This document shows, piece after piece, positions 1,286 to 38,628 of a stretch of DNA of 64,000 bases. The first letter of the stretch is position 1. Each line of letters starts with the position of its first letter. The DNA lies in NCBI GenBank assembly GCA_977017645.1, contig OZ360227.1, forward strand, positions 101,742,001 to 101,806,000, in the 5' to 3' direction. Source of the stretch: Torpedo marmorata (taxonomy: Eukaryota). Below the pieces are notes generated by a model that was given only the letters and a program-made list of their open reading frames with translations, did not search any database and was not told the DNA's origin. A program made the translations under genes and the position numbers.

Positions 1286-1353
1286 CTATAAGAAGTAAGA
1301 AACAAGAAATGAGACTTTAGCAAATTATGTTATTTTTATTATTATTAGAAAAG

Positions 1354-3385: not shown

Positions 3386-6078
3386 CAGACAGTTGAATTT
3401 GGTCTTAACTGTGGACAACAGCGACACCTACAAATCTAACTCCAAGGAGGCGCCCGCTCCTTTTCATTGCAATCTGCCCACAGATCCTTCAAATCCTTCA
3501 CGCATGCAGATTTCATGTTGTATATTCTCATCCGGATCATCAACGGATTTGTATTCCGATTACTAAAAGTGCAGCAGCATTTTTTAAGGCAACAAAGAAG
3601 TCGATCGATATAAACTAATTACAGCCATTTCTGATCCCCGAGAACCGTAAACGAATGCAGATCAGATTTCTGATACATGTTGAAGTTTTGGAAATCATTG
3701 TATGCTGTGTACCTTATTTTTATGTAGAATTAGTCCGATCATGCAGCATTTTGATTTTGAACTACAGTATTGTGTTGTGAAGTCGATGAATGGAATCAAC
3801 ATTTGAATTCTTATTGCTATTTATCGGTAGGGTTCTTGTGGAACTATGTAATCATATCACAGCTGCAAACATATAAAAATGTTTCTTGCAACTTAAACCA
3901 AATCTTCATGAGAGAAAACAATGACTGCAGCAGTGCTCGCCCACTTCACGCCCTCACCAGGGTGGACCTCGATTCTTTCCATGACGCAATTATCAATGCT
4001 GAGTAAAATAGAAGCACGCCTCGGGGTGACAAGGCACAATTCTTAAATGCAGTTCTTTCTTGCGAAAATTCGCACATACATTTAAAATTTAAGACTATGA
4101 CGGAGGAAGCGCCACGTTTGCGGTGCATCTAATTAATTTGCTGGGGCAGGCGCTCGGGGTTTATTGCATTATTCTAAAACGCTCTCACTTCAGGTCACGT
4201 TCTTACCATGTCTCCTTGTCGCAGGTGTGTAGGTTCGTCAATGACGTTTCGTAGAAACATTTTCAAAAATAGGACGAAAACGTTTCCAAATCCCCATGTC
4301 AAAACATCATGAAATATAACAGAAAAGCTATCAAAATGTTTTCCTGCTTTCTACCTTTCAATGTTTATTGAATTCCGCTTGACTAATGCTCTTGCAATGT
4401 GTGCTGTGATTTTTCTGATTTTTCTGCGTATCTCGAGGCACTTTTACCATTCGCGCATATACCATTGGGAGAATCTGCTCGGTGGGCATCAGCTATGGCC
4501 GAGCAATTTGACACCCATATAACACGACGAAATTTCCTCCTTCACACAAAGAAGTGAGGTCGACAGTGTCAGGGTCAAGGTTGTCACAGATGCGTCATTT
4601 CTTTTATTTTGTAATGTAACTCCACTGTGAAATTGATTCAGCGTGTTATGAATTTCAGTCTTGCATGAAACATTTAAAATTGTACGAATAATTACAGTGA
4701 CCGTTAATAATAAAGAACACGCATGGATCATGCGTGCCACACACAAATGGATACAATTTTTAGTTGATAATCCGCTGTGATATACTTAAAAATTATATTT
4801 GTAATTTAACGTTTGCACTCTATTGTTTTTTTTAATCAATTCTACTTCACTTGAGCATTCTAGGTTCAATGTCCGTTATGCTCACAGCTATTCTAAGTCA
4901 GAACGTAACTTCCTTCGCAGCGGCCAGATGTTATACAGCACAATTCACTCATACCAAGTATTCAATCCGATAAGTATTTGCAACGAAATCTGGACCCTAG
5001 AGTGTTTATTATGGCGCTAAGGGTTATTTATCTCTGAAATAACTTACTGTTCCCAAAAACAAAATTTATCCTGGAAAAGGAATTCCAAAAAAAACACGGA
5101 AATACTCTGGAAATTTTTTTCTTTCCAAACAAAATAATTTGATTAAGTCTTTAAAAGCCACATGAAATAAAGGGGTATGTAGTGCATGAAGTTGAGACCG
5201 GATAAGTCTGGTATTGTTGGTAATTTCGTCATTGATAATGTTCATATAACGATTTAATGCTCTTATGTAAAACCTGTTTCTAAGCAAGGGCAAAAGCAAC
5301 AGTACAAATGGAAATATTCCTTCACTTAATGCTTTCGGACTTCAGCCGCAAACATGGGATTAACCATAAAATACAATGGCAAAACAGATCAATGCAATTT
5401 ACGATTCACGTCTTTATTATTTAATCCGTTATCAATTCGTAACTACCTCAAACCTTACATTCCTCAACTTAAATATTAACAATTTATATCTCAGTAAAGT
5501 GTTCCATGCTCGATCAATGCAGCCGAGCAGACGTTACGGATACCATTCAGTAAACACACTTAGGGAGTACGACTATACCAAGAATATGATGCTTAAATGA
5601 GAATCGCAGTTGTTTGCGTACATAAGCAATCGTTTATTTCAACTATATTTCCAATGTCGCTTATTAGCGATGTTATTAAGATGGTGGCGAGTTAATAAGT
5701 ATTCTGAAGCATTTAATCAAGCAACCGTGATTTTGGAAGTTCTACGTTAAGAACTAATGCTGCACTATTTCCAGACAACAGATGCGTTGCTGAGCCTTGA
5801 AAGACAGCTAACTAGGCGTCTGGTAGCCCGCACAATACAAAACTGCTTTTATTCGCAAATTGCGATGTCAAACTTTTGCAGCCTTCAATAGAAGCGATTA
5901 ATTAAACTTAAAGCAGACCACGCATAGTTTAAAAGTATTTTCACCACGAAGTCTTCCTTTTCCACCCAATGCAAGGCCATTCGCTGTTTGCGGCGTTCCG
6001 GGCCTATATTATTTCAGTTAGTTTTGCTCAAACGGTGGTAAAATGAAGCAACATTAGTGTCCGTAATATTAAGACATA

Positions 6079-6223
6079 NNNNNNNNNNNNNNNNNNNNNN
6101 NNNNNNNNNNNNNNNNNNNNNNNNNNNNNNNNNNNNNNNNNNNNNNNNNNNNNNNNNNNNNNNNNNNNNNNNNNNNNNNNNNNNNNNNNNNNNNNNNNNN
6201 NNNNNNNNNNNNNNNNNNNNNNN
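6079..6223. other. Assembly gap
   Basis: Run of N. Confidence 0.99.
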
Positions 6224-9200
6224 GTAGGAAATATTTTAATTTTATAAAGCAATGTTAACATTTGTTTGTACAGTTATTGCTTATTTACAAGCTAATTCTT
6301 TTGATATGTTTAGTAAAACAAATATTAGTTGATTATTTTGTGGATCAAACTTTAAACGGCATTGCAGCAATCACCAAAGATTGCATGCCAACTGACAAAA
6401 TACCTTATTTTTTTATCACGAAATTCGAAAATATATAGACCAACTGCTAATTTCAGTTAACTCAAATAATATTGTGCCTGTAAATTTGTATCCTAAAATC
6501 CCTGGAATTAATTTTTAAATCTCATACAATCTTACAATCATACTGGAATTAACGGCCATGTATTCTTTGAAATATAAAGATTGGTATAGTATAAAACTGT
6601 GGTTATCATCCGGTTATACTCGTCGAACCTATAGCCAAGTTTTAGCAAAGGAATTATTGTATTAGTATTATTTACAGAATATTGCCAGATAGTGAAGTGA
6701 CTGATTAGTCTCCAAACTACACTTCTACGTTTAATAACATAGTTAAAAGCTGTTTATGGGATAAACGTTACATACAAATCCTCTTTAAATTAGTTCTAAT
6801 GATGGAGCTTAATTAAAATCTCGTAATACTTTAAAGTGCCAATGTGGGATGGGTTTTGCTGGAAGGGTTTATATGATAGCAGCTAAATGGATATTAGAGA
6901 TACACAGGAACATAAAGGCAACTATATTATGCCTGCAACGATTTACAAAGAGTTTTCATTCTCCCTCACTGAATGCAACTAACTGCTTATATAATAATAA
7001 TTATACTGACAATATATATAATGCAGACAATTTCTCCAAAAATGTTGGTCGAATAATTTTAAATGATTGCGTTTTAGGTCGAACAAAAATATATTTTGCT
7101 TCCTCATGAAACAATGTCCCTATATTTTTGGAGGTGTGCATTTCTCTTGATTTCCCCATTAACGTGGTTTATGATCCAAACACTGCCCACCACTAGTATA
7201 CTTAATTTTCACTTTAATTTTTTTTATTATTTTCCAGATTCAACGTTATTATCATAATAATTTTGCCATACGTTTTTCTTTCTGCTTACACATAAATGTA
7301 GAAAGGGTTGTATGAAAATTTCCCTTCTCATCTGAATATTCCAGAAACATCCGGCTAAAATGCATGTTAAGCGTTAGTCAGTACCACTGCAGTTTTCTTT
7401 AACAAACTTTCCTTTGATGTTACCACCTGTACATACTGAGGAAACATTTTTGTTCATTCGAATGTTTTCAGTTAAAGTGTGACTGAAAGCCAATTTATCG
7501 CGTATATGGCTGCTGCTTTCATAATGCTTGACTACAAATTGCAAATTACTAACAACACAACTCCTCATATTTAAATCTATTTACTCGTTGTCACGTTAAA
7601 TTAACTGTTGCAATTTTTGCTATCACTAAACCATCGCAGATATAACTGACTAGATTATTAATGTTTCAAATTATATAAATCTATACATCTCCCCCGATAA
7701 AACACACACAGCATTTTATGACCTTGTAAAATGAACTGGCAGAAAAAAATAAACTCTTTCAGAAGAGTTTCTCGTTATTTTAAACCAAAAGCAATGTTTT
7801 AGGAGAACAGAGAAATCGAAAATATGTTCCAACAACATTTGACTAAAATGTGCGGGCATGAAGGAATGATATTCGCTCAGCATGAACTTGTCGGCTTTGT
7901 CATGAGAAAAAGAAACACGGCCAGACTATGGTCAGAGGCTCGTTAGCGTGGACCGGGTGTGAAAAAAAATTACACAATTAATACACATATGTTATTAGAG
8001 TGGGAGCGGATATTACCGTTATTTACTCTTATCAGCTACTGCATATTCAGAAATATGTTACAGAGCTCCCTTTTACAAAAGATATTAAAATCATTTTCTT
8101 GTATACAATATAGATGATCAACTTCTAAAACTAATCTTAATTTCAAAGAATGATGAAAATTTCCTATATTAAATATTCCAGCGCATTGTACGTTTGATTG
8201 CACTTGAACAATTTACGGAATATTGCCAGAATTATCTAGATCGCTATAACTTATAGTATTGGTCTTTATTGTCAGTGACAAAAGTCGGCAGCTGCAATTC
8301 TGCATTGCTAAGTACATGTTTCATGAAATATTTCCACTTTGCAAAAGGGAGGAATTCAGGACCCAAAACGATGTAAAATCGCCTTTTCTCTTTTAATTAG
8401 GGAAATGAATATGGCAGTTAAACATACACTCGTTATCGAAATGTATTATACAAACTTCATCACTATCTATTTTATAATTTTGTAGGCCATTCTGATTGCG
8501 GGGAAGCGCCAAGGAGGGATCCTGGAGAAGTCATTAGAAAGCAGTGAGTCCAAAAGTGCGCTGCTGTTTCAACCGGCTACATCAGAAGATTGTGAATACT
8601 GCTTAGCACTTGTCTGATAGATTTAACGATTTCCACATATTGCTAAATTGTCTTATTGGAAGTTCAAATTAACGATATCATGTTCTCTGTATTTATAATG
8701 CGCATGCACAATTATAAGAAGCTGTTAGATAAATAATTCAACAAGTCTGGTTTGGGTTTCATACTGCACGTTACAAAATCTTTGTTTCGGCCTCATGAAT
8801 GTAACTTCTATACTTCTGCATCCAACAAATCTGATCAAAGAGTTTTAAAAATACACTGATTAAAAAAAATTAACATGTCCCTCCGAATAATATTAATGGA
8901 ACATTTAGGAACATTTATGTTGCACTCATTACAGAGAGAACTTAGCTGTTTTTTCGAAGCGAACTCTAAACCAAAACCGATGAAAATAAATCGCAGTCTA
9001 TAATGTATTTAATTAATCAATACCTTCTTCGGCCTGCTGTTCCAAATATCTCACGGCAACGAGACGAACTTTACGGCTTCCAAGGCTTAACATTATTTCA
9101 GTTGATGTCATGGTCATCCCCGAAAGCCACTGCCATGGACCTTGACGACAACTCCGGTCGGTCGCGAGCTGTAGTGCGCCTCCATGTGGTTTTTTTTATG

Positions 9201-11477
9201 AAAGCAACCATCTTTGGTAATGCTAAGTGCATCACTGTAAATTCTTCTCTTTGTTCAGTCGTGATTTCAGCTTAATCCAATATTATTATGTATGTTATAA
9301 GTTATTGCAGACAGATATGCAAGCAATAACCTTGCGCATAGACCAGAAGAATACTTTACAAGGATATAGAACAAGTCATAGGGTCAGATTTTTGTTGAAA
9401 ATTTCACCAGTCATAAATTACATTTTCTCCCATTTCCATGGAAACCAAGATCCTCGCGGATGATTGGTGTAGTGTACAGGCGATACGATGTATATTTTGA
9501 CCCGTTCAGCTGGCATGTAAATGATCGATACTATATTTAAGCAATAAGAAATGCAAAAAGATATTCGAATTAATGTTGCATACTACCGATGTAGAGTATT
9601 GTTGAATGGAATATTTGGAAAACACAACGCTTAGCAATAACAGAGAATTGTTTCACATTTTACTAGTTGAGTTTTTAAGCATGTGTACTTATTTATAATG
9701 TTATAAATAATGGAGTTTCTGTTTTACTTTGGTAGGAAATTTTTAAGATCAACCCAACAGTCACCAGGCGCCTTTGTCTTCACAAAGGTTAAAGGTGTTG
9801 ACCTTGACATCAGAGAAGTTCAACGGCAACATGATAAGCATCCTCGTCACGAAATATGCTTTAGTATGCTCACGAGACGACACTGCTTTCAGAGCACCAT
9901 CCTGGCCTTCATTACGTTTAACATATTAGCTTGACGTGATTTATGCACGATCCAGTTTTTTAAAAACTTTTTTTCAAATGTTAAACTTTATAAATGTAAT
10001 TGGCTATGTATTTTCTTCCTTTTTAAAAGCATCTAGTTGTTCCTATTTACTTTTATTTTCCTCGATCCTTTGTTTGGTAGAAGGCCATCTTAGTGGCTAC
10101 ATGGTGCAATAAGTCGCTATGAAGCTGTTTCGAGCAGTGAACTTTACGATGTTGTCTAGACAGTTCAAGGTTTTGTAAACAACAATGCTATGTCATGCGG
10201 CACCGAAATTTGGCAATTCTTTTTCGAAGAATTTTGTGAAGCTTTACTCGCTCTTCTTCTAGTCTCCGATGTGAACTTCAAGTTGTCCAATTTATGTGTA
10301 TATTTAAGCGCCCCCCTTCTGCTGGAATTCAACTAATTTTGCACATCTGCTGCTATTTGTCTTTACTTCTTCACAAGCAACCGAAATAGATCTATCAATT
10401 AATTTCTAGTTACTATCTGGAAATAATATGAATGTAATTTTAAAAAAAAAAATCAAATTACAACTACTATGATGTCTCCAAGAAAAAAAAAACGTAGTTT
10501 AACACATGACTTTTCATTTATAATAAAAGTGATCAAATAGCAGCGTTTATGTTTCCATTTTCGTTTCAAGGCTGCATCCTAAATGGCTGCTCGCCGAAAC
10601 ATGAAACATAAGAACCAGGGATGTACATGCTGAATATAGTCAGGAGATTAGCAATATGAATTCTATTCGGGTTCCCGTTATTTTGCCATTAATCCAATAG
10701 ACTATAATGTTTGCTTTTCGTTGAATTTCAGAACTTCAAAAATAATGGTGTGATTTGAATGTGGGGTCTGAAATCTGGAACCATTTGCACCGGATTTTCT
10801 TTTAAAAATGTAAGTGGGCATGAAAAACGTTTTATTTGAAATATTTCGAACAACATTTTTATTAATTTAGAAAGGAAAGACATCTTATCACATGCGTTTA
10901 ACATGAAATGTCAACTAGTGTGTATTCCGGAAACATTATTATTAAAATCACATCTCGTCCCTCGCTACAGTATATTATCATTAACTCGTGCCATAGAATA
11001 CAAAAGTAGAGTAATAAATATGCATTTCTTCTTTTCATCAGAATACACAATTAAACAATTCTGGGTGGTTTCACAATACGTTGACACAAAAAAGAAATAG
11101 ATCATATTATCTGATTGACCATCGCCGTTAACTAATAATATTCTATTTTTGCCATTGGCTACCCCGATTTATTGTTTAAAACGAAATACTGCTTATTTGT
11201 CCTGAATATCCCGCGCCGCAGAATCAAGCTGCTTCCCTTGGGAGGAAATAACATGAATGCTGAGGTAACAATGTTCCCTAATTAATATTACGCCCATGTT
11301 ATCTGCACCACCACGTCACCTCAAATCCAATTCTTTGTCAATCATTTAACCTGGTTTCCACGTAAGAACAGCAGAACTCTTCCATCAAACTTGCAGCCCA
11401 TCCTTGTGGAAATGAATATTGATTAAGGCAATGAAGAGTAGGTCAAAGGGAATCCATCGGTGTAAACTGTATCATAG

Positions 11478-11710
11478 TCACAATAAAGGATTACCAGTAA
11501 AAAAGTGCAGGCGGTCTCTGCTAAATTTCTTTTCTTTCATTCTCCGATTCTGGAACCATATTTTAACTTGTCGGTCGGTGAGGTTTAACAATCTCGACAA
11601 TTGCAAGCGTTTTTCTTTGTTTATGTAGACATTGAAGAAAAATTCTCGCTCAAGTTCCCGGATCTGATATTTGGTGTAAGGACATCGTTTCTTTCTGGAT
11701 CGCAGCGCAG
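11478..11710 (-). CDS. HOXD11: HoxD11 exon 2 (homeobox); spliced protein 281 aa
   Basis: Acceptor tttccatcag|; encodes [57 protein letters not shown]...FTGNPLL*. Confidence 0.96.
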
Positions 11711-12247
11711 CTGATGGAAAAGTGTTCAAAGAGTTACAAATGATCTTCTACCAAATGGGCGACATTTTAATTTCCTTGTGCCTGGCTAAAATCGATATGA
11801 AATGGAGCAAAACTAAATTATTCTATTTGACTATACCTCGCGATCACTAATTAATCTTCATAAATATATTTAATATATATACTGTATTGAAATGCGTTCT
11901 TATTAATTTCTCGTGCTGTGATATTTATATTGAAAGCAAAGTAGCAGAAATGAACCCTGAGCGAAGCTTTGTCTTGTTTGTACGAACAAATGGATTCACA
12001 AATAAAAAAACAGAAATAACTGCTGGACAAATAACAATAACACAGAAATTATTGTAATAACTTAAAATCGAGTATTCATCATTTTGCATATTCAAAGAGC
12101 CCACCTAATCTGATTTCCAATCGTAAACAACCTTTACGGCTTTAAACAGATATTATAGGGTATATAAAATCCTGCATCTGGTTATAAAATTTCACATAAA
12201 ATTTGTGAGACAAAATGTGTTGGCCCTGTGTTCTAACCCTAGGTTAC

Positions 12248-12860
12248 CACTGCACCTACTGGATAGGCTGCTTTTGTCGGACGCGCTGGTACCGGATGAC
12301 TCGCCTGTGTTCTTTTCGGTTGCATTTTCTTTCATCTGACCCAAGGAAACTTTATCAGATGTTGTAATGCTCTGGCACGTAGACACGGACTTCTCGGTCA
12401 ACTGTTCAGAATTAGAAGAGTCAGAAATCCCATAGTCTGTCTCAAAAAACTGATCAAAACCTTGCGGGAGTATTCCATTCCTGCCAACTGTGGTGTAGAA
12501 ATTGCAAGATGGATTTGAGCTTGCGTGCTGACTGTATATGTTATCACTTTTAAACAACATTCCCGTTCTGACCGGTGGCTGGATATAATCTCTGTGCATT
12601 ATCTCTTCTGCCGAGCAATAAGGAGTATAGTTGCTCCTGTAATGCCATTTAGTTGGATGTTCTATCCCGTAATCTCTGAACGACATTTCTCGAACAGGTT
12701 GAATTTGAGCTAAATTAGAGTAAGGAAATGTCATTTGGCAAGAATTTGTCTGCGGTAAGAACGTTGACACTGCCGAAAAATCTTGGGCTGAAACATAGTA
12801 CGTGCAGCTGGGTAGGTACATGCTCGAGTTGCAGCTACCACGGTCTTCAAACTCAGTCAT
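12248..12860 (-). CDS. HOXD11: HoxD11 exon 1
   Basis: MTEFEDRGSCNSSMYLPSCTYYVS...VREMSFRDY...VGRNGILPQGFDQFF are Hox11 N-terminal motifs. Donor G|GTAACC at 12247; 613 nt, phase 1. An in-frame upstream ATG at 12914 could add 18 aa. Confidence 0.94.
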
Positions 12861-15800
12861 CTTTTGTTTTCGTGGTTTCGAGAACGAATTATCAGGATTG
12901 ATGGCGTTAAACATGCTCCATCTATTCTACTCTAAAGGCGTATGAACGGGACGGCGAAAGAAAAAAAAAATTGAAACGTATGCTGACGTGGAATTCATCT
13001 TGATTGATTCTAAGGGTAAAAGAGTCATGTGATCCAATGTAGAAATTACCATATATCATTAAGATCCATCCTTGGGAACCCGTAGATAATTCGAAGTGAG
13101 CCTATCGGCTTCAGTTGTTGCAAGTTAGCTGTGTTTCTTTCTCAGGACCAAGATTCGCGTTTTGACTCAGGAGTAAGCAAACTCTATAACAAATAATTAA
13201 GTGTTCGCATCATAGTCTGTCACAGATTCATTTGTATCTATGGAAACTTCAAAACCGTCAATTAAGTTTCATTGGCTGGCGAATTCATATTCATAAATAT
13301 GAGCCATATACTGTCAGACAGAATATAAAATTATTAACATTTATCATAAATTCCTTGGGTAACTAAGATAATTTATAAATAATTTTGTGTTGGTAAATGT
13401 AAATGCTGCGTGCAGACTAAACTCTATTTCATGGTCGAATATAATTTTCATTACATGTATCATAATTAAAGAACGTAGAAATGCCTATCAAAGTAAAGGA
13501 TAATGAAACAAGTTTGAAAAGGTTAAATTTTGAATCTTTTCCTTAAATATATAAAATCATGTATGAACTTTCTATTGACAAGGATATGAAATTAACTTTT
13601 ATTTTTATCACTTTCAAATAATAATATATTCATTACATTACTTAAAAACTGTCCTATGAGTTTGAATTTGACGTAATATTTTAGCACTCCCAGGAAATGT
13701 ATAAATCACACAAAATTTCGAAGGCTGGAGCCTCGTGAACTGCAGGAAAAAGCCCCTACTCCCTGATGATTAACACCAAAATATGGCTGTATTACAATAT
13801 TTATAATATTCTCAGGACACCAGATTTAAGGGAGGTGCACGTGTTTCACAAGAATGACACAGGTTCCTTTATGGATTGTAAAATTAAAACAATGGAAATG
13901 TAGAAAAAGCAAAGTCGTATTCTAACAGTTCAGAATTTGTTTTCAATACTCTTCAGGATTAAGACCAGCGCATTGCTTTCCTTGATCTACCTCATTCCAA
14001 CAATCTGGATATTTCTTTTCAAGATATTTTGATTGACATAAGAGCGAAATTCTGGTTTAAAATGTGTTTGAATCTCCATTGCAGCTGTTTTAATGGAATA
14101 CCAGACAAACGAGAATTCAGCCGGTTAAGCGTGTATGTAACTACCAAATGCCCATTGATATATAGGAAAAATAGCTTAACAGAGAAAAAGTTCTATTCGT
14201 ATTGATTTTAACTTCATGCATTCATCAATGAATGCTTGTGATTACTTACAAACGACTAAATATCACGCACGGTCAGTGTTGGTCAGACTACATTTGACCG
14301 TTTAAGTCATAATGCTGTGCAACTTACTCGAACAACCTAAGAATAGCCCCTATCCTGACTGAATGGGAAGGCTTTATTGTTGCGTATTGAACCAATTTCT
14401 TTTAATGGTTACAGATTTTTTTCGGGAATATATAGATTCACAGAAACGTCTAAAAGTAACAGACATGTGAAGTTAGATTAGTTTATTCTACGAGCACAGA
14501 TATAAAATGTGACATCCGGTCGATGCCAGCAGAAGACATGTGACATTGTACTGCTTTGATTAGTCAGGACTGGTATATCGTGCGGCCTTTGTTTATTGTA
14601 AAATATTAATGTCAATTAATCTCAAAACAAATGAAAAAATTGAAACGGAATACAGCTGCCTGATCTAGCGTATGGTTAGTGGTGACAATTACAACAAAAA
14701 ATATAGTAAACACGAATAAAGGATAGCGTGCAGGGTATTGAGTATCATTGCAGTTAAGTTACTAGAAATGCGTCACTTCCAACACACACATACCACATAG
14801 GGGGACTTTAAACTTTCTGTTTCAACCTTATTTTGTTTTATTACTGTAGATCTCATGGCTGAGGGTTCTATTCATAGATTCGTGAATTATACAATTAGTT
14901 AAATTGTGCTTTGATTGTAATATGGCTTCTGTTGTTCTATATAGTTACTGCAAAACGTTAATGTGCTGGCAAAAACCTCAATGTAATTTGCCACGATTGA
15001 TAAAAACGGAACTATCAAATAGCATTAGCCAATAGTTCTGAATGAGCCTGTTCAATAATATGGCAACAGCTATAAGTAGAACGAGAATTAAGCGTGGCCT
15101 TTGTTCTCGTCTCGTGTTCGGAGCTCACTTAACGCTTGTTGCTCGCAAATATTTAACACGCCGCAGAACGTTGATAACGAATCAACGTTAATTCGCTTTA
15201 CAAGATGTGTGTTTTTATATTGTACAAGTTTGAATATTATTCTCTTACATGCGATATAAATCGAAGCACTAAAGCAGTTTGTAGGGTAGTTTTTTTTCTT
15301 ACGCAATGCATCAAGGCGACGATCTATAGTTTCAGTTTTGAAGATCCAGCAAAATATTTGCTTCGTTTTTTGTTTGCACCTCGGCAAACTTTACATATTT
15401 CCAACGTGGAAACAACATTCATTGGTCAAGCAAAGTACATATCAGTGGAATGTTAGGCTTCTGCAGTCCAAAACGAGACTCTAACTTGACCTTAACTTTG
15501 TTATGGCGCCCCCAGTATCTGGAGAGCGTGCAGAGACACCGTCTGGCAGCTCGACAATAAAACTGAGATGGAAAAGAGATTCTGAGCAATTCGACCGAAT
15601 GTCGAACAATTTCCCAAAGCTTGGGGTAAAATTGCTGTATATTCAGTAGCATTGTTACAATATATTTAGATGTAAATGCATTTTTTTTAGTTAATCTTAT
15701 CCAACAGATTAATGTAAATTACGGAATGAAATAATAGTCCATACTTAATAGTAATCGCATATTGTGCACCAGAAAAAAAAAAACATTCAGAAATTCAGCG

Positions 15801-23147: not shown

Positions 23148-23161
23148 CCAGCAGATGGCGA
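23148..23161 (+). promoter_or_regulatory. CTCF consensus site between HoxD12 and HoxD13
   Basis: CCAGCAGATGGCG matches the CTCF core CCASYAGRKGGCR at all 13 positions. Motif match only. Confidence 0.65.
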
Positions 23162-25669: not shown

Positions 25670-25920
25670 TCAAGGTATACTTTCTTTGACTTTGGAAACC
25701 ACTTTTTTCTCTTTGACTCTTCTGTTCTGAAACCAAATGGTAACTTGTCTTTCGGTAAGGTTGGTGGTTGTAGATATCCTTCGTCTTTTTTCCTTGGTTA
25801 TGAATTTATTAGTGGCATATTCTCGCTCGAGTTCTTTAAGCTGCATTTTCGTATAGGGAACCCTTTTCTTCCTCCCTCGCCTGTAAATGTTTATATCTGT
25901 CTGATTGTGCATCACATCTC
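25670..25920 (-). CDS. HOXD13: HoxD13 exon 2 (homeobox); spliced protein 311 aa from ATG 26932
   Basis: Acceptor ttctcttcag|; encodes [70 protein letters not shown]. Confidence 0.96.
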
Positions 25921-26247
25921 CTGAAGAGAAAATGTAAATTAGAAGAACATAAGCTCCAAGAAGCTTCAGCTGAAAAGGGAGGGGAAAATAAAAGGGAGGA
26001 GATGGTGAAAGTTTTTTTTAATAACACGCTTGAATATTTGGTACATTTGATAACTCATTTGAGATTTTTAAGCATTCAGACAAATGCATCTGATATATGG
26101 GTTCTAAATGTTATTTATTTTAAATATTCCAAATGGAAAAATAAATTAGAACATTCCCCATAAAGGTAAATGAAAGTTTCCTCCATTTTCTTTGGTTAAC
26201 ATTAAAATGAGTTTGAAATATTTTTCTGTGAAAATATTTTATGATAC

Positions 26248-26932
26248 CTGAAAGAGGCGATTTCCAAAAATGTGAAGACTGTGTCTGATCTTTAGGGCAA
26301 TACACTTGACCATTCCAGCCATTAGCAAAGGTCCAAGGCTGGTAACCCTCCATGGATATTAAGGCTTCATGCCTAGGCTCTCCGTGGCCACTTATGGTCG
26401 GGACTACTGGAACGTCCAAATAACTAGATACCCGTTGATAAGGATTAGGGTAACTCTGATAAAAAGCAAATTCTTTTGCCCGAGTTGACACCTCATCACT
26501 GGGGATAGAACTGTTGGTCAAACCCGAAACATCCATGTATTTGTCCACCGGGTAACCGGCTAGAGACGCGTGAGCACCAGATTTCAGTCCTGCTTGCTGT
26601 ATACCAACATTTCGACAACTGTAATAGCTGCTTCCAAAATGATAGCCATAACTGAAGGCTGGGTTTGAAGGGCTTTGAGGAGCTGGACATGGGCTGCATT
26701 GCTTAGCTGGTTCAGAAGTGACAGAATGCGTCCGATCTCCGCCTGAGTAAGCAGTTCCCGAAGATAAGGAGTTGTGATGAGGTCCAAATGCAGAGGCAGA
26801 TAGAAAATTCCTGCATTGATTTGAAGGGACGTTCCCACCCAATCCTTCCATCTCCGGATTATTCGTATTGTTTCTGTTGTGCAGGTATCTGACAGTATCA
26901 GTTCTCCAAGGGGCTGAAAGAAGAGCTGTCAT
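26248..26932 (-). CDS. HOXD13: HoxD13 exon 1
   Basis: Hox13 motifs [48 protein letters not shown]. Donor CAG|GTATC at 26247; phase 1. The start is either ATG 26932 (MTALL) or ATG 26851 (MEGLG). Confidence 0.92.
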
Positions 26933-26959
26933 ATCACGACCCACTGCAAACTAAGTACT

Positions 26960-27070: not shown

Positions 27071-30000
27071 GGCTGATCTTGCTTCATACTCATTGCCCTC
27101 CTTTCCCGATCTTAATTTTTTTCAAAATAAAATAAAATAACCGACACTGTGAAAAAGAGGATTGTTACTTCTCGGCAATACTACAACTAATGCTGTTTAG
27201 ATGATATTTACATGGGATAATATTGATGACATAAAATATATTATATTATTTGAAGTATCAGTTCTTTACAAGTATTGAATACATGAAGGTTCTTTGAGGA
27301 TTTTTAAAGTTAAAATTAAGTATTGGAGAATATGTGAAATTTGCCATTTCCATTTGCAAATGGGATTATGTTGTTGTCACGCGTTATCATAAATGGACAG
27401 AGTGCTGACTGATTTTTGTATTTTCATGAATTCTGATGAAGAATCTCGGTAACAACCTTTTTAGCGTCAAATGTGTTGGTCGTGATAACATAGACCTGTT
27501 CTATCTACAAAACCACCACGAAATACATTTTAAAGATCACATATTCTCTTTTTTCTACTTAATTCTTAAAGAAATCACTCTTAAATTGATACTTTATTTT
27601 TAAAAAATCGAGTGGAAGTGACTTGAATCGAAGTCTTTTTTTTCTCTCAGCACTGTAATTTTTGTATTATGCTATTGTGCTACAGAACAACATGTTTCCA
27701 TACGAGGGCTGAGTTTATAGTTTGAATTGAGAAAGCTAAGTTATTCTAAATTGTCAACTTCCTGAGCGTAGTATAACCGTGCTAGAACTTTCAATTATAT
27801 ATGTCAAGCAGACAAAAACATGATTTCGGAATCACCGGCTTTCTCAATGGGCTACGTTTTAGCAAAAATCTGAACATATCGAACTTTTAGTTGAACATTT
27901 TAGCATAATTCGAGTGCCTGGTTCGTTTAACCCAATTGTTATCTCAGACTTTAGGGCAGTAGCAATAAAAAATAAAAAATACTAAATAACTCAGCTATGT
28001 GGAATAGAACACCTTTAGATTACGGCAATCTATAAACAATAAATGTGATGTAAAAGTCTATCTAATTGTCTACCACAGTTTATTTACACCACTATTTACT
28101 TATGAGGTTAATGCAATATATGTTTTATATGTTAAACCAAGCCATAGACTCTTTAGAGATTATTTGTACGAGCAATGGATGTTATATTCATTTTCTGATT
28201 TACGAAAAGGAAGAAATGTGCAAATATTTAAATAAAATTTATAGATCGGATGTAGCTACAAAAAATAGGACCAGCAACATTCAACAAATGTTAAACGGAT
28301 AATGGAAAGAGATCAGACTCTGTGACCTAGTTTTCAGCAATGAATATTGTGGTGCACTGAAGGGGCTCATCTAACTATTTAAGAGAATAGGTTGACCTGC
28401 TTTCGCGAAGCGAGTCTGTGCACTAGCAAATTTGTTGTCTATGTTGCCTCTCAGAGAAACATGACACGGTTTCAACAATGATTGAAAATGTCAAGCAATT
28501 CAATTCCACGCAAGAGGAAAAATAGGATTGTGATCATATTTTTAAAAGTCGTTTTGAATCTTGGCGATTTGTTTTTGAGAAGGCAAGGGGCAAGAATAAA
28601 AAAATAAAAGAAGTTATTTCACAGGAACAAACCACAAGTGGAACCCATGATTTTGAACTGAATCACATGCATTAATTTCTGTGAACCATTTGATTTACTT
28701 CCTTCATTTGAAAAATATACTTTTCCTGCACTGGCGGTAAACGAATATTTAGATAAAACAATTCTAATTGCAATTTAATAATCTGAAAGAACTATCAACC
28801 GAGTTCAAATCTTATCCTTTACGCCCTAGAATCATTTAAAAATGCAGCGCGTTTATTTGATAGCTTATGAATTGTATCCCACATCAGAGAGAGAAAAAAA
28901 TACAAAATTAGTAACTCCTACTTTCACAGTGGAGGATTTGCTAACATTAGTTTTCGGGTAGCTGTTGTTATTTAGAAAATGCATGATTGAATTAAAAAAA
29001 AAAGTCGCCCTCTCAAGTTGCTCGCATCTCTGGTATGCAGACAAAGGGGTTCTTTCCGGAAGTAGACGAAGGCCAAGGTCAAGGTGGAGAGGGGGTGGGT
29101 GGGTTGAGGAGGAAATAAAATAGAGAGAGGGAGAAAGACGGTAAATAGCGGTTTTAAAGCAATTCAACGGTTCAGTGGGAATTACGTGAGAATTCGAAAA
29201 AAAATGACGTTAATAGTAATTAATAATAGATTCAAAAATATGGCATTTCTAATATGTTAATATATTATTTAAATATTATAAAATGTGGCTCTAATTTTTC
29301 TTACAGGGATGTATTAGTTTGCTTATTCAATTCGCTTTAAAAGCAGAACGCCATTTTCATTAGCAAGTTGAGTTAAATTCAAACAGGATTATACTGGAAG
29401 GCCCATTGTTAATTTATCAGGCAATTAGCAATGAGCAATAAATGTGGCTTCAGGGAATGGACTGCCTCTAGAACAAATCAAACATGCAGAATCCGATGAT
29501 GCCAATATAAATATAAATAAATCGCATTTTATTTTGGTATATTAGCAGTATTCCCATGTAATATATTGAAATTACTTAGCAAGCAAATGTAACGTTTTAA
29601 ATTACTTACATACACATTAAAGACATTATTTGAATGTTATTTTTATCCACAATTATACTATTTTATTGTTCCACATTCTTGTGGAATGTTCGACATTTAA
29701 ATTTTGTGGGAAATCGTAGTTGGGATATTTTCTTTCGAACATAAAAAATCATTTACTCGATATAGTTTCAGTGCTATTATTCGATGTGGTTTCCTCTGGT
29801 ACTTTTAAATTTTGGTTTTGGGGCTACCAGAAGTAGCATATAATAGTTATGGTTTAAAATTGTTCCCGAATATTATTCTGAATGTCAAGACCCCATCCAT
29901 CGATTCATAACCCTAATAATGTGGTTCACAATTATACCTGTTAAAAGATATATGTGGACAACGTCCACTATCTAGTGTCAAGAAGTTTAATTTGACAACC

Positions 30001-30433
30001 TGTTCTATTTTATTTAGTTATATTAAGAAAGATGTTACAAGTTTGGCCAATCTTGAATGATTTGAACTTGACCTTGCTACCTAACGGGCCATTCAATTCA
30101 TGCAAAGCAATTTCATGCAATTTAAAACGTAGGCATAACAAAATAGATATTAAAATACAAACGTATTATTTAGACAACAATAACAGATACAATGTGTTAC
30201 AAACAATAATCAATTGATCAAAGATATATCCAGGTTTTCATAACTGAATCCCACTCTGTAACAAGCTATATGAGTCATGTTTGAATACATGACTTCATGT
30301 TGACCATATATAGTTTTGCGATGACCGCTATTAATAGCGGAATAAAACCAGATTACTCACCAGAAAATATATGTTATTTTGCCAATACAAAACGAAAGAT
30401 TGATTATCAAGACCTGGCTAATCAGTATACAAA

Positions 30434-31175
30434 ACACAAATGCTAGAGAAACTCAGCAGGTCAAACAGTGTCTTTTATGTAGCAAAGGTAGAAATACATA
30501 ACCGACGTTTCGGGCTTGAGCCCTTCATCAAAGTATGAGAAAATGCCGGCAGGCGTCCGAACAAAAGAGTGAGGGGGTAAGGGGGGTGGCAAAGGCAGGA
30601 GATAATAGGTGGAGAAAGGAGGGAGGGGACAGCAGCAAAGAGGGGAAGGAGGGATGGCTAGGTGGGTGGAAAAAATAGGAAGGACAGGTGAGGGGGGAGG
30701 GGAAGGGAACGACAAGCAGGTTTAGTGGAAAGCAGAAAAGTCAATGTTAATGCCATCTGGCTGGAGAGTGCCGTTTCCGTCTAGGTACTCTCCAGCCAGA
30801 TGGCATTAACATTGACTTTTCTGCTTTCCACTAAACCTGCTTGTCGTTCCCTTCCCCTCCCCCCTCACCTGTCCTTCCTGTTTTTTTCCACTCACCCAGC
30901 CATCCCTCCTCCCCCTATTTGCTGCTGTCCCCTCCCTCCTTTCTCCACCTATCATCTCCTGCCTTTGCCAACCCCCCCCCTTCACCCCCCCCTCACTCTT
31001 TTGTTCGGACGCCTGCCGGCATTTTCTCATACTTTGATGAAGGGCTCAAGCCTGAAACGTCGGTTATGTATTTCTACCTTTGCTACATAAAAGACACTGT
31101 TTGACCTGCTGAGTTTCTCCAGCATTTGTGTTTTTTTACTTCAACCACGGTGTCCACAGATTCTCGTGTTTTACT
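30434..31175. mobile_element. Penelope-like element insertion: inverted copy (30434-30773, -) plus direct copy (30774-31175, +), flanked by a 15-bp TSD
   Basis: The arms are reverse complements, and both match the 3' part of the GIY-YIG-coding element at 61919-62235. TAATCAGTATACAAA occurs at 30419-30433 and 31176-31190. Confidence 0.9.
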
Positions 31176-34114
31176 TAATCAGTATACAAATTGTGTTGCA
31201 CAGTATATGTAATTGAAAATAAATTCCAAACAATCGCTGATATTAAATCGATTTTATTTGCAACATCTCTGAATTGCATCGATAATAAACTGCACTCATA
31301 ATTAATTTAGAACCAAAATAGATGTGATCCACCAACAATGACCAATATAACGAAATATATATTTAATCTAACGTAATTACCAACTAGTTAAACACTTAAA
31401 ACGAACGCCTCCTGCTTCAACTTGGAAACGTGTGTTCCAGTTAGCACCGCTGAAGTAATTTCCTGCATTGCAAGCCAGTACATTATTCCTTCTGCCCCAG
31501 GTATCTCAAATATTTCAAAGATAAGTGTCAGTGTATCTATAGAGAATTTTTGTAATTGTTATAAAGGCAATGTATTTAATCAAAGAAAGCCACTGTAAAA
31601 CATTATTTAAAAAGTATACCCCTTCTTCGCACAACAAACACATTCAAAACGCCATACTGCTGTTGTGAGGACCTACCATGCTAAAACCCTGCCAACAGAA
31701 TCAACTGCATCTTTAAAACAGGTAGATGCCTGTTTCCAATTCAACATTCCCAATTTAAGTTCAAAATCATGTATCAGAACAGAGGATTCTTTAAGGATCA
31801 ATTATTCTATGTGGAAATGAATTTACTGGTCAAATCCAACAACAAAATAATTTTATTTGACAGATATAAAACTTGCCAATAAGCAGAAAGTAATGTCCCG
31901 CGAAAAGGTGTGGAAGTTGAATACATGTAAAATGCAAAATATTTGTTTGTAGTACCAAATTAGAGTGGCATGCCATGCAATATACTTCAAATGAATTTCA
32001 GAATTACGAAATAAAAGATGCTTTGATCTGTATAGTACATAAACATTTTCAAATGAGTATCATTCAGATATGATGTAGTGAATAAATAAATGGTAGTTTA
32101 GTGTTTCAAATGAAATACCATGAACATTGAAATTGTTATTAATAATATTCTGTTTGAATAACCATTCCAATATTCAACTGTTTAATAATATCTTATATTG
32201 CATTCACAAAAGCTTTAATTATTGGAAATTCGAGTTCACCATGACCAGCAGTGTTCATGAATAAAGCATGATGCACATACCTATTTACTTTTGCACAATA
32301 CTTTGGCCTTTACTTTTGTGCAACAGGAGCTATGAACAAATGCAGCCTTCAGTGGAACACCCACACGGCATGATTCATTGAATCAGAGGGTGCAGACTAA
32401 ATTCAGTATTAATTTTTACACAACCAATGTTTACATTTGTATTTCTATTTATAAATGATGGAAATGTGTAAGTTACTAAAATATAATTATCATAAAAGCT
32501 GCGATATATGTAGAGCTGGCATTCTGGTTTAATTTCAAGGTGGCAAACATGATAGTCAATTTCTAACATTAAAGCCAACTTAAAGATCTGAACATGAAAA
32601 GGTTGAGAGGAATGGAAACACAGGTAGAGTTGTTAATGCATATTTTTCGATATCTGTAGGAATTGCCCTACAGCAATTGTCTATTTAGTGCATTGACTCT
32701 GTTCCAAATGTTCTTGAGGAAAGTAGAACTTGACGTTTTCCATATCAACTAGTCTGATATTAAAGGATAAAAAAAGACAGGAGCATTTCTATAAAAAAAT
32801 CCACTACACTATTCCAAGTAAACTGAAAGTTTTTCTGCTATGTTACCATCTTCTATCACTTAGTAAGACGACCATGTCAAGATGATCTGAATATTAACTT
32901 GACAATACAGCTCAACATTACATTATGCCGTTCTTGAATTATTTGCTCGACACAAAAGATGATTTCAAAATAGAATTCATTCTGTGAATGGTTTTGTTAA
33001 GAGTGGTATAATAAGCACAATGCCTTTAAGCAAATGAATATTTGTCCTTCTGTTATACATCTGAAAACGATATACTGTAATCGGACAATCGTTCGAATGA
33101 TTCTCAGTACAACTAGCCAATGAATAACATGTTTCTCTTTGATTATTATGATTTACCATAATTTATAAACCATTTATCTGGATATGCATATCAAATTTTG
33201 CGATGTGGTGTTTTAAATTAAATCCAAACTTCTGTTATCTTATGCATTGGACTATTTAGATATGAGCACGATCGCCGAACATAGGCTTGATTCCTACATC
33301 TTGTTTGATATTCCAGCGCAGTGCCGAGTTTGTGCCGCACTATCAGAAGTAGGGTCTTTGAAATGAGACGATGAACTGAAATCACATTAGTTCTCGCAAA
33401 TGGACACATAACATCCAATGGCATCATTTCAAAGAAAAGTTGTTGCCAGAGTACTTTTGGATATTTTGAGTATCCCGAAGATCTCCGCCGGAAAATGATA
33501 GAACGATGGCTTGGTTCTTCTGGAGAAATTGGGAACTGGGAAACTATGCCTTTTTTGCCTATCGTACATTTTTAGTTGTGATGTAAACGACGAACCATCG
33601 ACAGAACCGAGAATTATGTTTTGAAAGTCAAAACACGTCTTACATAAGTAAAACATGTGTAAAACAAACTGCAGGGGCAAAAATGAAATGATCATTCTGG
33701 AGCAAACGTCGTTTCTTTATTAGTTTTAATAATTCCGTTGCAGAACCATCAAATTTTGGAGAGAAATACTACAGCGACAACAAAAATGTAACATTTCACA
33801 GAGCAGATAACATAACAAATCCGCAAGTTGTATTTAAGTAAACTGTTTTCACTTGTTAATTAATTATATTTGCAGTGGAATCATACTTTATTTCCATTAT
33901 AATCAAATTTAGCTTTGCAAGTGAAAGTCCAGAAGCTAACTCACTGTAAGTGAAATAATACTGAGCACAATGTTAACCCATGAACTAAACTTCCACTCTA
34001 ACACAAATGGAAAGTACACTTTCGTTCAGGAATGACTTAATTACTAAAACTAAAAACAAAGGGAATCGCAAATTCTCAAGAATGAAATCACCATGAAATA
34101 ACATTTGAAATTGA

Positions 34115-34123
34115 ATAGATGGG

Positions 34124-34171
<48 letters not shown>

Positions 34172-34203
34172 CATATGGATAGATAGATGGACAGACAGAC
34201 ATA
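34115..34203. repeat. (GATA)n / (GACA)n imperfect microsatellite
   Basis: Directly visible, ~600 bp 3' of the HoxD14 stop. Confidence 0.95.
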
Positions 34204-34785
34204 CATATTGTGATGTGTTTTAGAAAGTAGAGGTAAAATTGTTTTTACTGTATACCACTGCAATGTAGCGCCTTCACAAAGTTGCCGATTTTATTAAAAT
34301 ACATATTATTATTTCGTACAATGCAGTGTTTCAAATCATTTTAAATTTGAAAATAAAATATAAAATTTGCAAACATTCACCTGCAAACCCTCCACAATCC
34401 TTACCAACATAATAATTTGAGCATTTAAGTTCACCTTCAGAGAATCATTACCGCATTCTAATAATCATACACACGTTAAACGTATTGGATTTACAGATAA
34501 TAATTATATTAACAAATCAAACTGAATATCTCCTTCAAGAATTAAATTCGTGGTGTAAATATTCGTTGTTTCCCATCTTTAGCAACATCAAGTACGCAAT
34601 GCAAAAAAAAAGTGGTCAATAAAAACTTTTCCACACAGGTACTTGTTTGAAAAAATATGAAAATGAACTTGCTCGTTGAATGCAGGTATGTCTGAAGAGG
34701 AGTGATTGGCCATTACATGCTGGAAAATATTTTTGTAACAGTCAAAGCCATGCTTCCTTTACACAAAGCTGTTCCTTTGTTACAG

Positions 34786-34869
34786 TCAAGGGCAGCTTGA
34801 GTGTATCGGTTGCTGCATGCGAATAAGTTTTTTCTCTTTCTGTCGCTGGTTTTGGAACCATATTTTTAC
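34786..34869 (-). CDS. HOXD14: HoxD14 exon 3 (helix 3 and C-terminus); spliced protein 261 aa
   Basis: Acceptor ttttcag|; hand translation VKIWFQNQRQKEKKLIRMQQPIHSSCP*. WFQNQR and the split homeobox are characteristic of vertebrate Hox14. Confidence 0.93.
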   Translation of the reverse strand, partial: VKIWFQNQRQKEKKLIRMQQPIHSSCP

Positions 34870-35032
34870 CTGAAAAGTAGAAGGTCATTTTAAAAACAGA
34901 AGAAGACAAATAGGAATAGTCTCGGTTTAATGTACAATGGGAACAAATGCGGCCACCTGTTGACAATTAAGAAAGACAGCATCTGCGGACTGGTATTTCC
35001 CTTATTCATCTTGTAAAAAAAAGTTGTCTTAC

Positions 35033-35208
35033 CTGCCTTTCTGATAAGGCTAATTTGAAAGAAATACCTAATCGTATTTCAGGAGTGAGGAATCGGTTTT
35101 TTTCAAAAGCTTTTTCCAATTCAGCAATTTGATGCTTGCTGTAAGGGATTCGTTTTTTCCTTCTTCTGGTTTCTGGATTTGGCGACGTTGACCATTGCGA
35201 CTTAAATC
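35033..35208 (-). CDS. HOXD14: HoxD14 exon 2 (5' part of homeobox)
   Basis: Acceptor ctttag|; encodes GFKSQWSTSPNPETRRRKKRIPYSKHQIAELEKAFEKNRFLTPEIRLGISFKLALSERQ. Donor CAG|GTAAGA at 35032, phase 0, between homeodomain codons 44 and 45. Confidence 0.93.
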
Positions 35209-35956
35209 CTAAAGCCGGGGCAAAATACATATCCATAAGAAAGTTTAACATGAATCTAAAGCAATAACATTAACCTATAATTTATTTTTGTACATGCAAG
35301 TCACTGTTAACCGAACCACAATGTGGAATTTTAATTTAAGTTAGCATTTTACCACCACGACACTGATATAGCCTGCATACGGAAATTAGTTTCAATTTAA
35401 TGTATTCGTTCTCTCCTTCATCTTTAAAAAGTAATTTTGTACCCAATTTTAAGCATGCGGAATAAATTTGAATATACCATCCATTTTCAGATTTGGATTC
35501 CAACGTGTTTGAAAGGGTGGTGACGAGCATTTGATTTTCGACTTATCTCCCAATGTTAAAGTACTTTGACTACAAACAGTAAAATTCGATTTGATCTTTG
35601 AAATATTTCTTGAAAAACAGATAGGAAACAATTGAGTGAAAACGAACCAACGTTGATGGATCACTTTCCTTGGGTAAATTGGTCGAATGGACGTCATAAG
35701 TGTTTTAGGTTTTCTTTAGAGAAAACATATTTCCTAAAGTGTGGTGGCTTTAGTTTTCTAAAAATTAATATAAAATTAAATGCTCTGCAGCCGCAGTTAA
35801 GTTAAAGTAAACACAGCCAGAGCAGATTGTCGGGTGGTGTTATAACACAAGAAAATACCAGTCTTATCTTTTTAAAAACACATATTGAAAACGATGGCAT
35901 TATTGTTCAAACACGTTAGCCATCACTAAATGTCAGATATGCACTCACAGACTGAC

Positions 35957-36482
35957 CTAAATGCATTGGGCCGTTGGGACTTGTATGAAGTGCTGCTCCT
36001 GAAATGGCCGCTCCGTAACATTGGGAATAGTTGAAGGCAGACGTGTCCAGGTCATCGGGATATGGCTGGACCTGAGCAGGTGCAGCCAGGGTACATTCTA
36101 ATGGCCAATTCTGATACGTTGATGTGCTTGTTGGGGTTTCGCCTCTAATGCAGAGATTGTGGCGGTAGTTACTAAACAAAGGTATATGACTGTCAATTTG
36201 AAGCTGGTTGGCAGTGAATTGACCCGCCTCAGGTGAGATTGCAACTATCTCCCGATTTCCGTTTCCCTGCGAATTACAAGTTGAAATATCTTCTGAATAC
36301 AATCCGTGGTATCTTCCACTTGGAGTTGGTTTCAAAGCAGAAGGAAAAATTGAAGGCGAAAATCCAATGTTCTCCGAAAGTACTGGTTTCATATCAATTG
36401 GACGTATTCCATCTTGCAGCATTACTGTCTTATCGCTAGATGTCTCTAACGTCAGTTTGTACTGCAGCGAAGTTAAATCCAT
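35957..36482 (-). CDS. HOXD14: HoxD14 exon 1
   Basis: Long ATG-initiated ORF (MDLTSLQYKL...) just upstream of the Hox14 homeobox exons. Donor TTAG|GTCAGT at 35956 gives 526 nt, phase 1, matching exon 2. The nearby GTGAGT donor would be out of phase. Confidence 0.82.
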
Positions 36483-38628
36483 CTTACAATTTTACTAAAC
36501 GATCGTCTTAACTCCAAACCTTGCAGCTTTAGTCTCTCAAATACCTTTTGTTGCTACTTGAAAGCGAAATGTTTTGTTCAAAATATTGAGAACTGGTGCG
36601 GGCAATGTGCAAGTAGTTTAACTTCCACCTCCCAGAAATGGCACTAACTATCTACACCTTGGTCTAAACTACCTGATCTTTTTATTGCTGTAACTCTACT
36701 GCAGTTCGCAAATAAAACACAGTGTGGACTCTTTGCAAATTGAACTTAGTGAACAAACTTCAAGGACATGAACTGCATTTCAGAATGACACATCTGTACT
36801 GTAGCTGTTGACCCAAGGTCAATGATGAGTTTTGTGATCATTTGTATCAGCCTCCTCTTTCTGATTTTCTTTATCAGACTTGTCCCCGCTGAACTTAAAT
36901 GGCAATGCTCGGTTGCTAGTTACCTGGATCTGGAAAGACCTCTTTATTTTTTCACATCGAACGCCAGAGTGGAGCAGTAACGTAGTAGAACTGTGACTGT
37001 AATCTGAAATAAAACCTTTTCATTACAATGCAGCATGCGTCAGACAGAAAAAGCATTTAAGAAGCTTTTATTGCCTGCTATAACCCTTAAAACTCCAGAA
37101 TTACACCTCGCGTACCAGTATGAGATGAAATAATAGCAAATATTTAGTCTATTATTGTAAACCTTTTTGAGGACGCTGAAATGAACTACTGCGGCACACG
37201 GAAGTGTGATCGATCTGTTTCTCCGGTTTTTATTAGTTGTATGACCTTTCTATCCGATTAAAACTTTCCATTGACATCATTTTAAAGGTAGTTACAACAT
37301 AAAGGATACAAACGAGAATCAGAACACGGAACAGTGGCTTTTCAATATGAAACCCATTTCCAATACACTTGCCGGTTTCTTTCTGTTGTATTTAACACTA
37401 TCTTGTCAGTTTAATTAATTAGTATTATGTCAATAAAAATAACATTATTCTACAGTCGGCAAAAGGTCGCTAATTAATAACCAGATAATTATAATGAGAT
37501 TATGCTTTCACGATTCAGAGTTTTAGGTTATAGGATAGATTTGCAAATCTGAATTTCTGTCCTTATTTTTCATTAACCACTTGATCTCGACAATTACAAA
37601 TCTTCCATGATATCCAGTGTTTAACAATGGCATTGGGCAATCAACTGTTAGCCCACAAAATAACACAAAACTCTGAGGTCAGTTCATTACAAAGTTAATG
37701 CAAATCAATATATGCATTTATCCTTTGTATCAACACTTCTGAACTGACTCGATATGAAATAATTGATCTATACGAAAGTTAACTCATGCGGACAACAAGG
37801 CGAGTTCTACCTTTTAACTTGTCAGCTTATTTCTCGATGCCTCCGAATCTCAGGAAAAGTAACTCTCGGGCTGCCATGGAGCAATATGGCTGTTGTAATA
37901 AATTAAAACAGACGAGGGCGCCAGAGGACAGATATTTTGGCTGAGTGCAGTTAATCTCGATTCTATTCATTTTTATTTATCTAACACCGTAAGTTAAAAA
38001 TACTGCAAAGCTTCAGAATTAATTAGACACAATATTCATTCGTTTTGAATCGTGGGCCACTGATCACAATATTGAATATTAAGCTTGAATAACATTGTTA
38101 TCAATGTCTCAGAAACACCATTGTATGCAGGAATAATGTATTTTGTTCATCGATAAGCTTTTTAAGCGAGCTATGTCAGGATCCGAAATTTTAATACGAT
38201 TACTAACTATAACACAATGCTAACTTGTAGTACAAACAATTCATATGATGACAAAAAGGTGTATTGCTGTCGACCTAATGTCATTTCGTACTTCAGTAAT
38301 TTATCATGATTTGAATGAATATTGTAACTTATGTTTTATTGTTAAACAACAACATTAAAATGCCTTTGTACTATACAGAAGTCGCTGCTGTTGCACGAGA
38401 TCCATGGGAAGAAAACACCATTTTCATCGTGCAACTTTTAAAACTGCCTTTTAAAGCATTTCTTACCCACAAATAACGTTAATGGCTTTGGCTTCCCATA
38501 TACTGTAGAATATTATTGCCTTGTTTCTATTACCGTTGTTTTGGACATTTATTGTCTATTATGTTTTGTTTGAACGCAGAAATTAGAGTAAATACTGAGT
38601 ACAAAAATACGAATATGATAATTTATTG

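Follow-up and report, generated by a model that had tools for sequence, protein, structure and literature searches.

The 64,000-nucleotide stretch of the Torpedo marmorata genome analysed here (the window; G000:C39:101742001-101806000) carries the posterior HoxD cluster (HoxD10-HoxD14, minus strand) together with Evx2 (plus strand), a gene set that suggests a cartilaginous fish, and its intergenic DNA was found to be enriched in nuclear-receptor half-sites that abut as direct repeats with zero spacing (DR0). Among direct repeats the excess is limited to this spacing, and it is replicated in the HoxA, HoxB and HoxC clusters, which lay outside the view in which the motif was first noticed and served as a held-out replication. 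New are the bias toward posterior DNA, specific to DR0 and seen across the four clusters, and a small set of sites conserved between paralogues; receptor elements in Hox clusters were already known, and direct control by NR6A1 (GCNF) has been suggested in print. The sites are very probably selected nuclear-receptor elements, a conclusion much safer than the identity of the protein that reads them, for which NR6A1 is the candidate. Cluster and gene names were assigned from reading of the homeodomains; the other Hox clusters were located by homeodomain search, and the four clusters with their flanks (1.06 Mb) were analysed.

A preliminary description of this DNA had placed four exact copies of TCAAGGTCA in the window, and all were recovered, at 9799 (minus strand) and at 22426, 23212 and 23237 (plus strand), with no further exact copy in the 64 kb. 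Its ten near-matches were also located, each within a few bases of the place given, but their grade is uneven and about half are of the quality expected by chance. Graded by mismatches to RGKTCA-RGKTCA, the sites at 22423 and 30063 have none, those at 4566, 9799, 23209 and 29070 have one, and those at 9105, 10162, 15487, 18932 and 23234 have two, while 7719, 9137 and 36813 have three and are no genuine DR0s, although 7719 and 36813 do contain CAAGGTCA. The window thus holds six sites of the NR6A1 type with no or one mismatch, and four exact cores. The statement that every interval has at least one site is a weak one: strict DR0s (≤1 mismatch) are missing from the HoxD11-HoxD12 and HoxD14-Evx2 intervals, and two-mismatch DR0s occur at 0.8 per kb, beyond Evx2 as well.

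The excess of TCAAGGTCA over chance was borne out against two backgrounds. At the genome-wide rate (33,471 copies in 6.22 Gb) 0.17 copies are expected in 32 kb, against four observed (P = 3e-5; treating the tandem pair as a single site raises it to 8e-4), and among the first 100 genomic matches, on contig C1, no group of four within 32 kb and two groups of three were found. In 300 local dinucleotide shuffles of the HoxD region the observed counts of TCAAGGTCA (4 vs 0.24), CAAGGTCA (8 vs 0.83), CAAGGTCAA (6 vs 0.33) and DR0s with at most two mismatches (42 vs 22.1) were reached in 0/300, and that of DR0s with at most one mismatch (5 vs 1.5) in 9/300. The classical spacings of retinoic acid response elements (RAREs) were unenriched in the region (DR1 1, DR2 3 and DR5 0, with ~1.6 expected for each from the shuffles). 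In an unguided ranking of the 1,451 nine-mers with three or more copies, made as a post hoc check, TCAAGGTCA came only 16th-40th, and CAAGGTCAA, which overlaps it and has six copies, came 6th-8th, after words from microsatellites and purine tracts.

Comparison with anterior DNA was made in zones set from homeobox positions, the posterior zone extending from Hox10 to 12 kb past the last gene; over the four clusters these amount to 306 kb posterior, 362 kb anterior and 395 kb of flanks, and posterior zones make up 37% of the held-out length. All ten held-out copies of CAAGGTCAA were posterior (10/10, P = 5e-5), with P from 0.012 to 5e-5 over all 8 choices of zone boundary, and when five paralogues of HoxD sites were taken out the bias persisted (5/5, P = 0.007). 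The bias was also seen for CAAGGTCA (17/24 posterior; P 0.02 to 0.0009 over the boundary choices), and for DR0s with at most one mismatch (27/46, P = 0.0025, overlapping matches being counted separately). Triple half-sites have a posterior bias at spacer 0 only (27/49, P = 1e-4). Spaced repeats, DR1 to DR8, had no posterior bias in the held-out clusters (all P ≥ 0.14). When nine-mers common to all four posterior zones were ranked, two words of the receptor half-site type, CAAGGTCAA and GAAGTTCAA, came first after those derived from repeats. The array that had been ascribed to posterior HoxD therefore keeps its enrichment and its DR0 character, but it is not peculiar to HoxD, being a property of posterior Hox clusters generally that is densest around Hox13. 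As separate observations, GAAGTTCAA is posterior-biased as well (13 vs 2), with three copies in posterior HoxD, one of them in the element E1 described below, and the densest group seen consists of seven CAAGGTCA cores within 15 kb that bracket HoxB13 (G000:C61:16235757-16249916).

Three HoxD elements, here designated E1, E2 and E3, are retained between paralogous clusters at equal place and orientation. Counterparts were sought with interval-restricted alignment scores, judged against the maximum of 30 shuffles, and with a core-masked ranking of 218 cross-cluster site pairs, because whole-cluster blastn gave E2 (E = 0.21) and E1 (E = 1.5) weakly and missed E3. E1 (9775-9835, 1.65-1.70 kb 3' of HoxD11) comprises the DR0 ATGTCA-AGGTCA (9799-9810, minus strand) with flanking half-sites; its counterpart in HoxB, 19 kb 5' of B10, is clear (score 48 vs null maximum 36), that in HoxA, 3' of A11, is marginal (38 vs 37), and the E1 pair ranks 3rd of 218 with the core masked. 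E2 (23191-23250, plus strand, 2.4 kb 3' of HoxD13) consists of tandem DR0s 25 bp apart and is matched 1.5 kb 3' of HoxA13 by a DR0 pair 26 bp apart in equal orientation (score 53 vs null maximum 35), its pairs ranking 2nd and 4th of 218, again core-masked. E3 (29065-29087, plus strand, 2.1 kb 5' of the HoxD13 ATG) is formed by the abutting half-sites AGGCCA-AGGTCA-AGGTGG, a motif that recurs in equal orientation 3.0 kb 5' of HoxA13 and 3.55 kb 5' of HoxB13. HoxA and HoxB are near-identical over ~60 bp around these half-sites (G000:C5:115889215-115889297 and G000:C61:16240654-16240734), the strongest paralogous match found.

When the core is masked, positionally equivalent pairs take the first five places among the 218; with the neighbouring half-sites masked as well, four of them stay at the top and the HoxD E3 pair falls out. 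HoxD E3 resembles its counterparts in the half-sites only, so that the case for its homology is made by motif, place and orientation. Retention thus concerns HoxD and HoxB (marginally HoxA) for E1, HoxD and HoxA for E2, and HoxA and HoxB strongly, with HoxD by motif only, for E3. No convincing syntenic paralogue was found for eight of the 14 listed sites (7719, 9105, 9137, 10162, 15485, 18932, 22426 and 36813) or for 30063; the match of 7719 was rejected as AT-rich and on the opposite strand, the site at 4572 scored no higher against HoxC than the null maximum (38), and the HoxB site 3' of B13 gave no alignment with E2 outside the motif. Elements common to paralogous clusters would have originated before the cluster duplications, and so it is likely that E1-E3 predate them. 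The proposal that the array is ancient is in this way supported, by three HoxD elements with paralogues in HoxA and/or HoxB.

These data bear on whether the pattern arose by chance, by choosing the motif after the fact or from repeat-derived motifs. The motif was chosen by eye, about half of the near-matches first listed are chance-grade, and one of 14 control spacings, the inverted repeat IR3, is nominally biased in the held-out clusters (P = 0.019). The 0/300 result in the shuffles, the replication in three unseen clusters, the syntenic paralogues and the lack of overlap with multi-copy DNA make this explanation very improbable, and it is largely refuted. An origin from repeats was rejected, as no site lies inside a multi-copy interval and the local short interspersed element (SINE) holds only a lone half-site.

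NR6A1 is encoded in the genome: a DNA-binding exon at G000:C2 agrees with 5KRB at 68 of 72 aligned residues (E = 6e-44, the exon alone being compared) and lies ~250 kb from an NR5A-like gene. It was found among 26 receptor exons examined, the first 20 of which did not include it. The NR6A1 homodimer prefers DR0 (PMC10909835), and in mouse the Hox11-13 genes of all four clusters come on earlier when Nr6a1 is lost and later when it is gained; a ChIP (chromatin immunoprecipitation) reanalysis gave putative Nr6a1 sites in each mouse Hox cluster, and co-repression involves NCoR/SMRT and DNMT3/MBD (Chang et al. 2022, PMC9755267). It is therefore proposed, at roughly even odds (about 0.5), that NR6A1 dimers at the posterior DR0s hold Hox10-13 off until the trunk-to-tail transition. 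In progenitors of the trunk stage, NR6A1 dimers would bind these paired and tripled DR0s and recruit co-repressors, delaying Hox10-13; Gdf11 and miR-196 would then clear NR6A1 at the trunk-to-tail transition, and its release would set the onset of Hox10-13. The DR0s are likely binding sites; NR6A1 as their main reader, its binding in vivo, repression and the timing of onset by release are predictions from the sequence. The sites share with the NR6A1/GCNF elements of Pou5f1, Nanog and protamine the DR0 of AGGTCA-type half-sites and the TCAAGGTCA core, and the DNA-binding domain of the factor is conserved in this genome (PMC10909835, 5KRB); unlike those elements, the putative Hox sites are many, intergenic, paired or tripled and spread over clusters. 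The putative Nr6a1 ChIP sites of mouse Hox clusters embody the same idea of direct and ancient NR6A1 timing control; the statement available from that source is a single sentence, which gives no coordinates, motifs, posterior bias or comparison of paralogues (PMC9755267). In searches of open-access text no paper was listed that maps DR0 or NR6A1 sites in posterior Hox clusters, closed-access surveys of paralogous elements being out of reach. Surveys of paralogous conserved non-coding sequences, reportedly by Matsunami in 2010 and Mainguy in 2003, may already include some of the elements.

Several points weigh against the proposed role of NR6A1 and against a clean posterior pattern. The sites were known before the zone edges were fixed, and for this reason the 8 boundary choices were compared; TCAAGGTCA itself, posterior in 9/12 held-out cases, is boundary-dependent (P 0.009 to 0.32). 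HoxC is weak, with one CAAGGTCAA, and anterior HoxD (64 kb) holds two TCAAGGTCA and four CAAGGTCAA, which contradicts the view that the sites are strictly posterior within HoxD. Conservation between orthologues amounts to a positional match to published coordinates; public sequencing runs of three related organisms, with 5-47% of words shared, provide no evidence on it. COUP-TFs, RAR/RXR, ESRRB and NR5A2 bind DR0 as well (PMC4446430), NR6A1 may activate some targets (PMC12957460), and a good part of the timing of mouse posterior Hoxd genes is attributed to long-range influences (PMC2642670). Other points of this kind, namely the bias of an NR5A word and the RAR or COUP-TF associations of two mouse elements, belong to particular alternatives and are given with them. 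The anterior HoxD CAAGGTCAA copies, at G000:C39:101692557-101706679 and 101731387, lie between D3 and D4 (three) and between D8 and D9 (one), unlike the situation in anterior HoxA, HoxB and HoxC.

The surroundings of the cores distinguish dimer from monomer elements. The 25 posterior CAAGGTCA cores have more half-site bases around them than expected, 58 vs 37.4 on the upstream side and 82 vs 49.8 on the downstream side (P = 5e-5 for either side), a result that holds in the held-out clusters alone, and 10 anterior and 10 flank cores had no extra neighbouring half-site bases. Because half-site bases are enriched on both sides of the core, abutting dimers or oligomers fit better than monomers, which do not need such neighbours. 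This makes it improbable that the sites are monomer elements with the CAAGGTCA core through which NR5A1/2 or ERR would activate posterior Hox genes in the epiblast or in cloacal, genital or gonadal tissue, and the ERR word TNAAGGTCA has the weakest posterior bias (P = 0.037). Such monomers would nevertheless account for the C or T that precedes 18/25 posterior cores and for the NR5A word YCAAGGYCA, which is found 22 times in posterior against 9 in anterior zones (held-out P = 0.00025) and matches the DR0 bias. Three exons in the genome are presumably NR5A-like, to judge from their sequence features.

The positions of the elements were compared with a published footprint table of Hox clusters that includes the horn shark (PMC3091776). 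This mapping concerns position only, is accurate to a few hundred bases and involves no alignment. Regions VIII and IX (RVIII/RIX, footprint fp26) fall at 9784-10288 by horn-shark offsets, at 9845-10331 when scaled and at 10095-10599 when measured from the other gene; E1 accordingly stands at the distal edge of RVIII/RIX. In mouse, region IX next to Hoxd11 is reportedly a nuclear-receptor-binding silencer, described by Gerard in 1996, whose point mutation is said to move Hoxd11, Hoxd10 and the sacrum forward; it is said to have bound RAR and COUP-TF in vitro, not NR6A1. E1 agrees in position with the mouse regions VIII/IX, and for E1 the HoxB and HoxA paralogues are now noted. The unnamed footprint fp17, listed for 10 of 11 jawed vertebrates (PMC3091776), covers E2 when scaled (23106-23255), the two unscaled offsets falling just to either side. 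Region X (RX) covers 15485 only when scaled and misses it by unscaled offsets. The identification of 36813 with region XII was rejected by position, since it lies 0.33 kb from the HoxD14 ATG, where the horn shark has distances of 1.5 and 2.6 kb.

The DR0 of mouse Hoxb13, the best known in any Hox cluster, has its two best matches within the 1.06 Mb in E3 of HoxD and of HoxB (14/16 bases), with the order of half-sites swapped and any orthology putative, and this DR0 was selected as a RAR/RXR element (PMC7515732, PDB 6XWH). Together with the place of E1 at RVIII/RIX and the capacity of both receptor classes to bind DR0 (PMC7515732, PMC4446430), it makes COUP-TFs or non-activating RAR/RXR conceivable as the main readers, imposing spatial limits or shielding from retinoic acid in place of NR6A1 timing. 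COUP-TF, RAR and RXR have preferred spacings, DR1, DR2 and DR5, that are without posterior excess, DR5 even leaning anterior (31 vs 16), so that this explanation appears unlikely. The genome has DNA-binding exons that we take, from their sequence features, to be COUP-TF-like. For RAR/RXR the preference for spaced DR1, DR2 and DR5 is documented, and the binding of RXR-RAR to DR0 is weaker and non-cooperative (PMC7515732).

The sites could also be shared receptor hubs on which NR6A1 is one occupant among others, with a minor or redundant role in timing and a mostly indirect effect. Exchange of receptors on a DR0 hub has been described at Pou5f1 (PMC4446430), the directness of the delay that NR6A1 exerts on posterior Hox genes is called unclear and stated as open in print (PMC10909835, PMC9755267), and timing has strong long-range components (PMC2642670). 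The retention of E1-E3 across paralogous clusters implies long selection on the sites, and argues against this account, which we consider quite unlikely.

If NR6A1 is indeed the reader, a wider interpretation can be offered tentatively, as possible rather than probable. The DR0 arrays around Hox11 and Hox13 may constitute a second, posterior receptor code of vertebrate Hox clusters, inherited from the single cluster that preceded the duplications, through which NR6A1 would directly slow the Hox clock. Two members of this code would be the mouse region IX silencer and the unnamed pan-gnathostome footprint located 3' of Hoxd13, and its tuning would change the number of trunk vertebrae. Anterior Hox genes carry activating DR5 and DR2 RAREs. 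The two sets are alike in that receptor repeats are kept across paralogous clusters, and they are mirror images, the anterior elements being activating and spaced, the DR0s posterior and unspaced. The Hox clock would thereby gain a brake that works through specific sequences, and evolution a point at which trunk length could be altered. The short list of 20-60 bp elements supplies mutation targets for deciding whether NR6A1 acts directly, and ties two older results, region IX and the Hoxb13 DR0, to the present sites.

Among the remaining sites of the window, the perfect DR0 AGTTCA-AGGTCA (22423-22434) lies with weak third half-sites in 22417-22440 on the plus strand and the perfect DR0 AGGTCA-AGTTCA, preceded by CA, in 30063-30080 on the minus strand, 3.1 kb 5' of the HoxD13 ATG; neither has a convincing paralogue. 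Three abutting half-sites, GTGTCA-GGGTCA-AGGTTG (4566-4583, plus strand), are found 1.35 kb 5' of the HoxD10 ATG, with a weak HoxC match. A two-mismatch DR0 (15481-15498, minus strand) is at the scaled position of RX, two weak sites with two and three mismatches (9105-9145) have a speculative positional match to the tetrapod footprint fp27, and CCAAGGTCA (36813-36821, plus strand), 0.33 kb 5' of the HoxD14 ATG, is of monomer type and no DR0. An Rfam scan of window positions 1-45000 at the gathering threshold gave no match, N stretches being unscorable, and the elements are therefore not explained by any described RNA family.

The minus-strand genes are HoxD10 (1014-3217), HoxD11 (11478-12860), HoxD12 (18967-20487) and HoxD13 (25670-26932), each with two exons, and HoxD14 (34820-36482), with three exons and a split homeobox, whose 3' end was mapped inexactly and whose reading frames appear open; Evx2 (40652-43270, plus strand) has three exons. 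SINE-like copies occur in the HoxD10 intron (one) and between HoxD13 and HoxD14 (a tandem pair), and there are two GATA microsatellites within HoxD, these features jointly occupying 1354-1481, 30419-31193, 504-658 and 34085-34239; fragments resembling long interspersed elements (LINEs) start past ~49600. HoxC was found on a small contig (G000:C1163:78000-308000; 45% GC) with homeoboxes C13, C12, C11, C10, C9, C8, C6 and a C3-like one, and its posterior half holds a repeat of ~100 copies.

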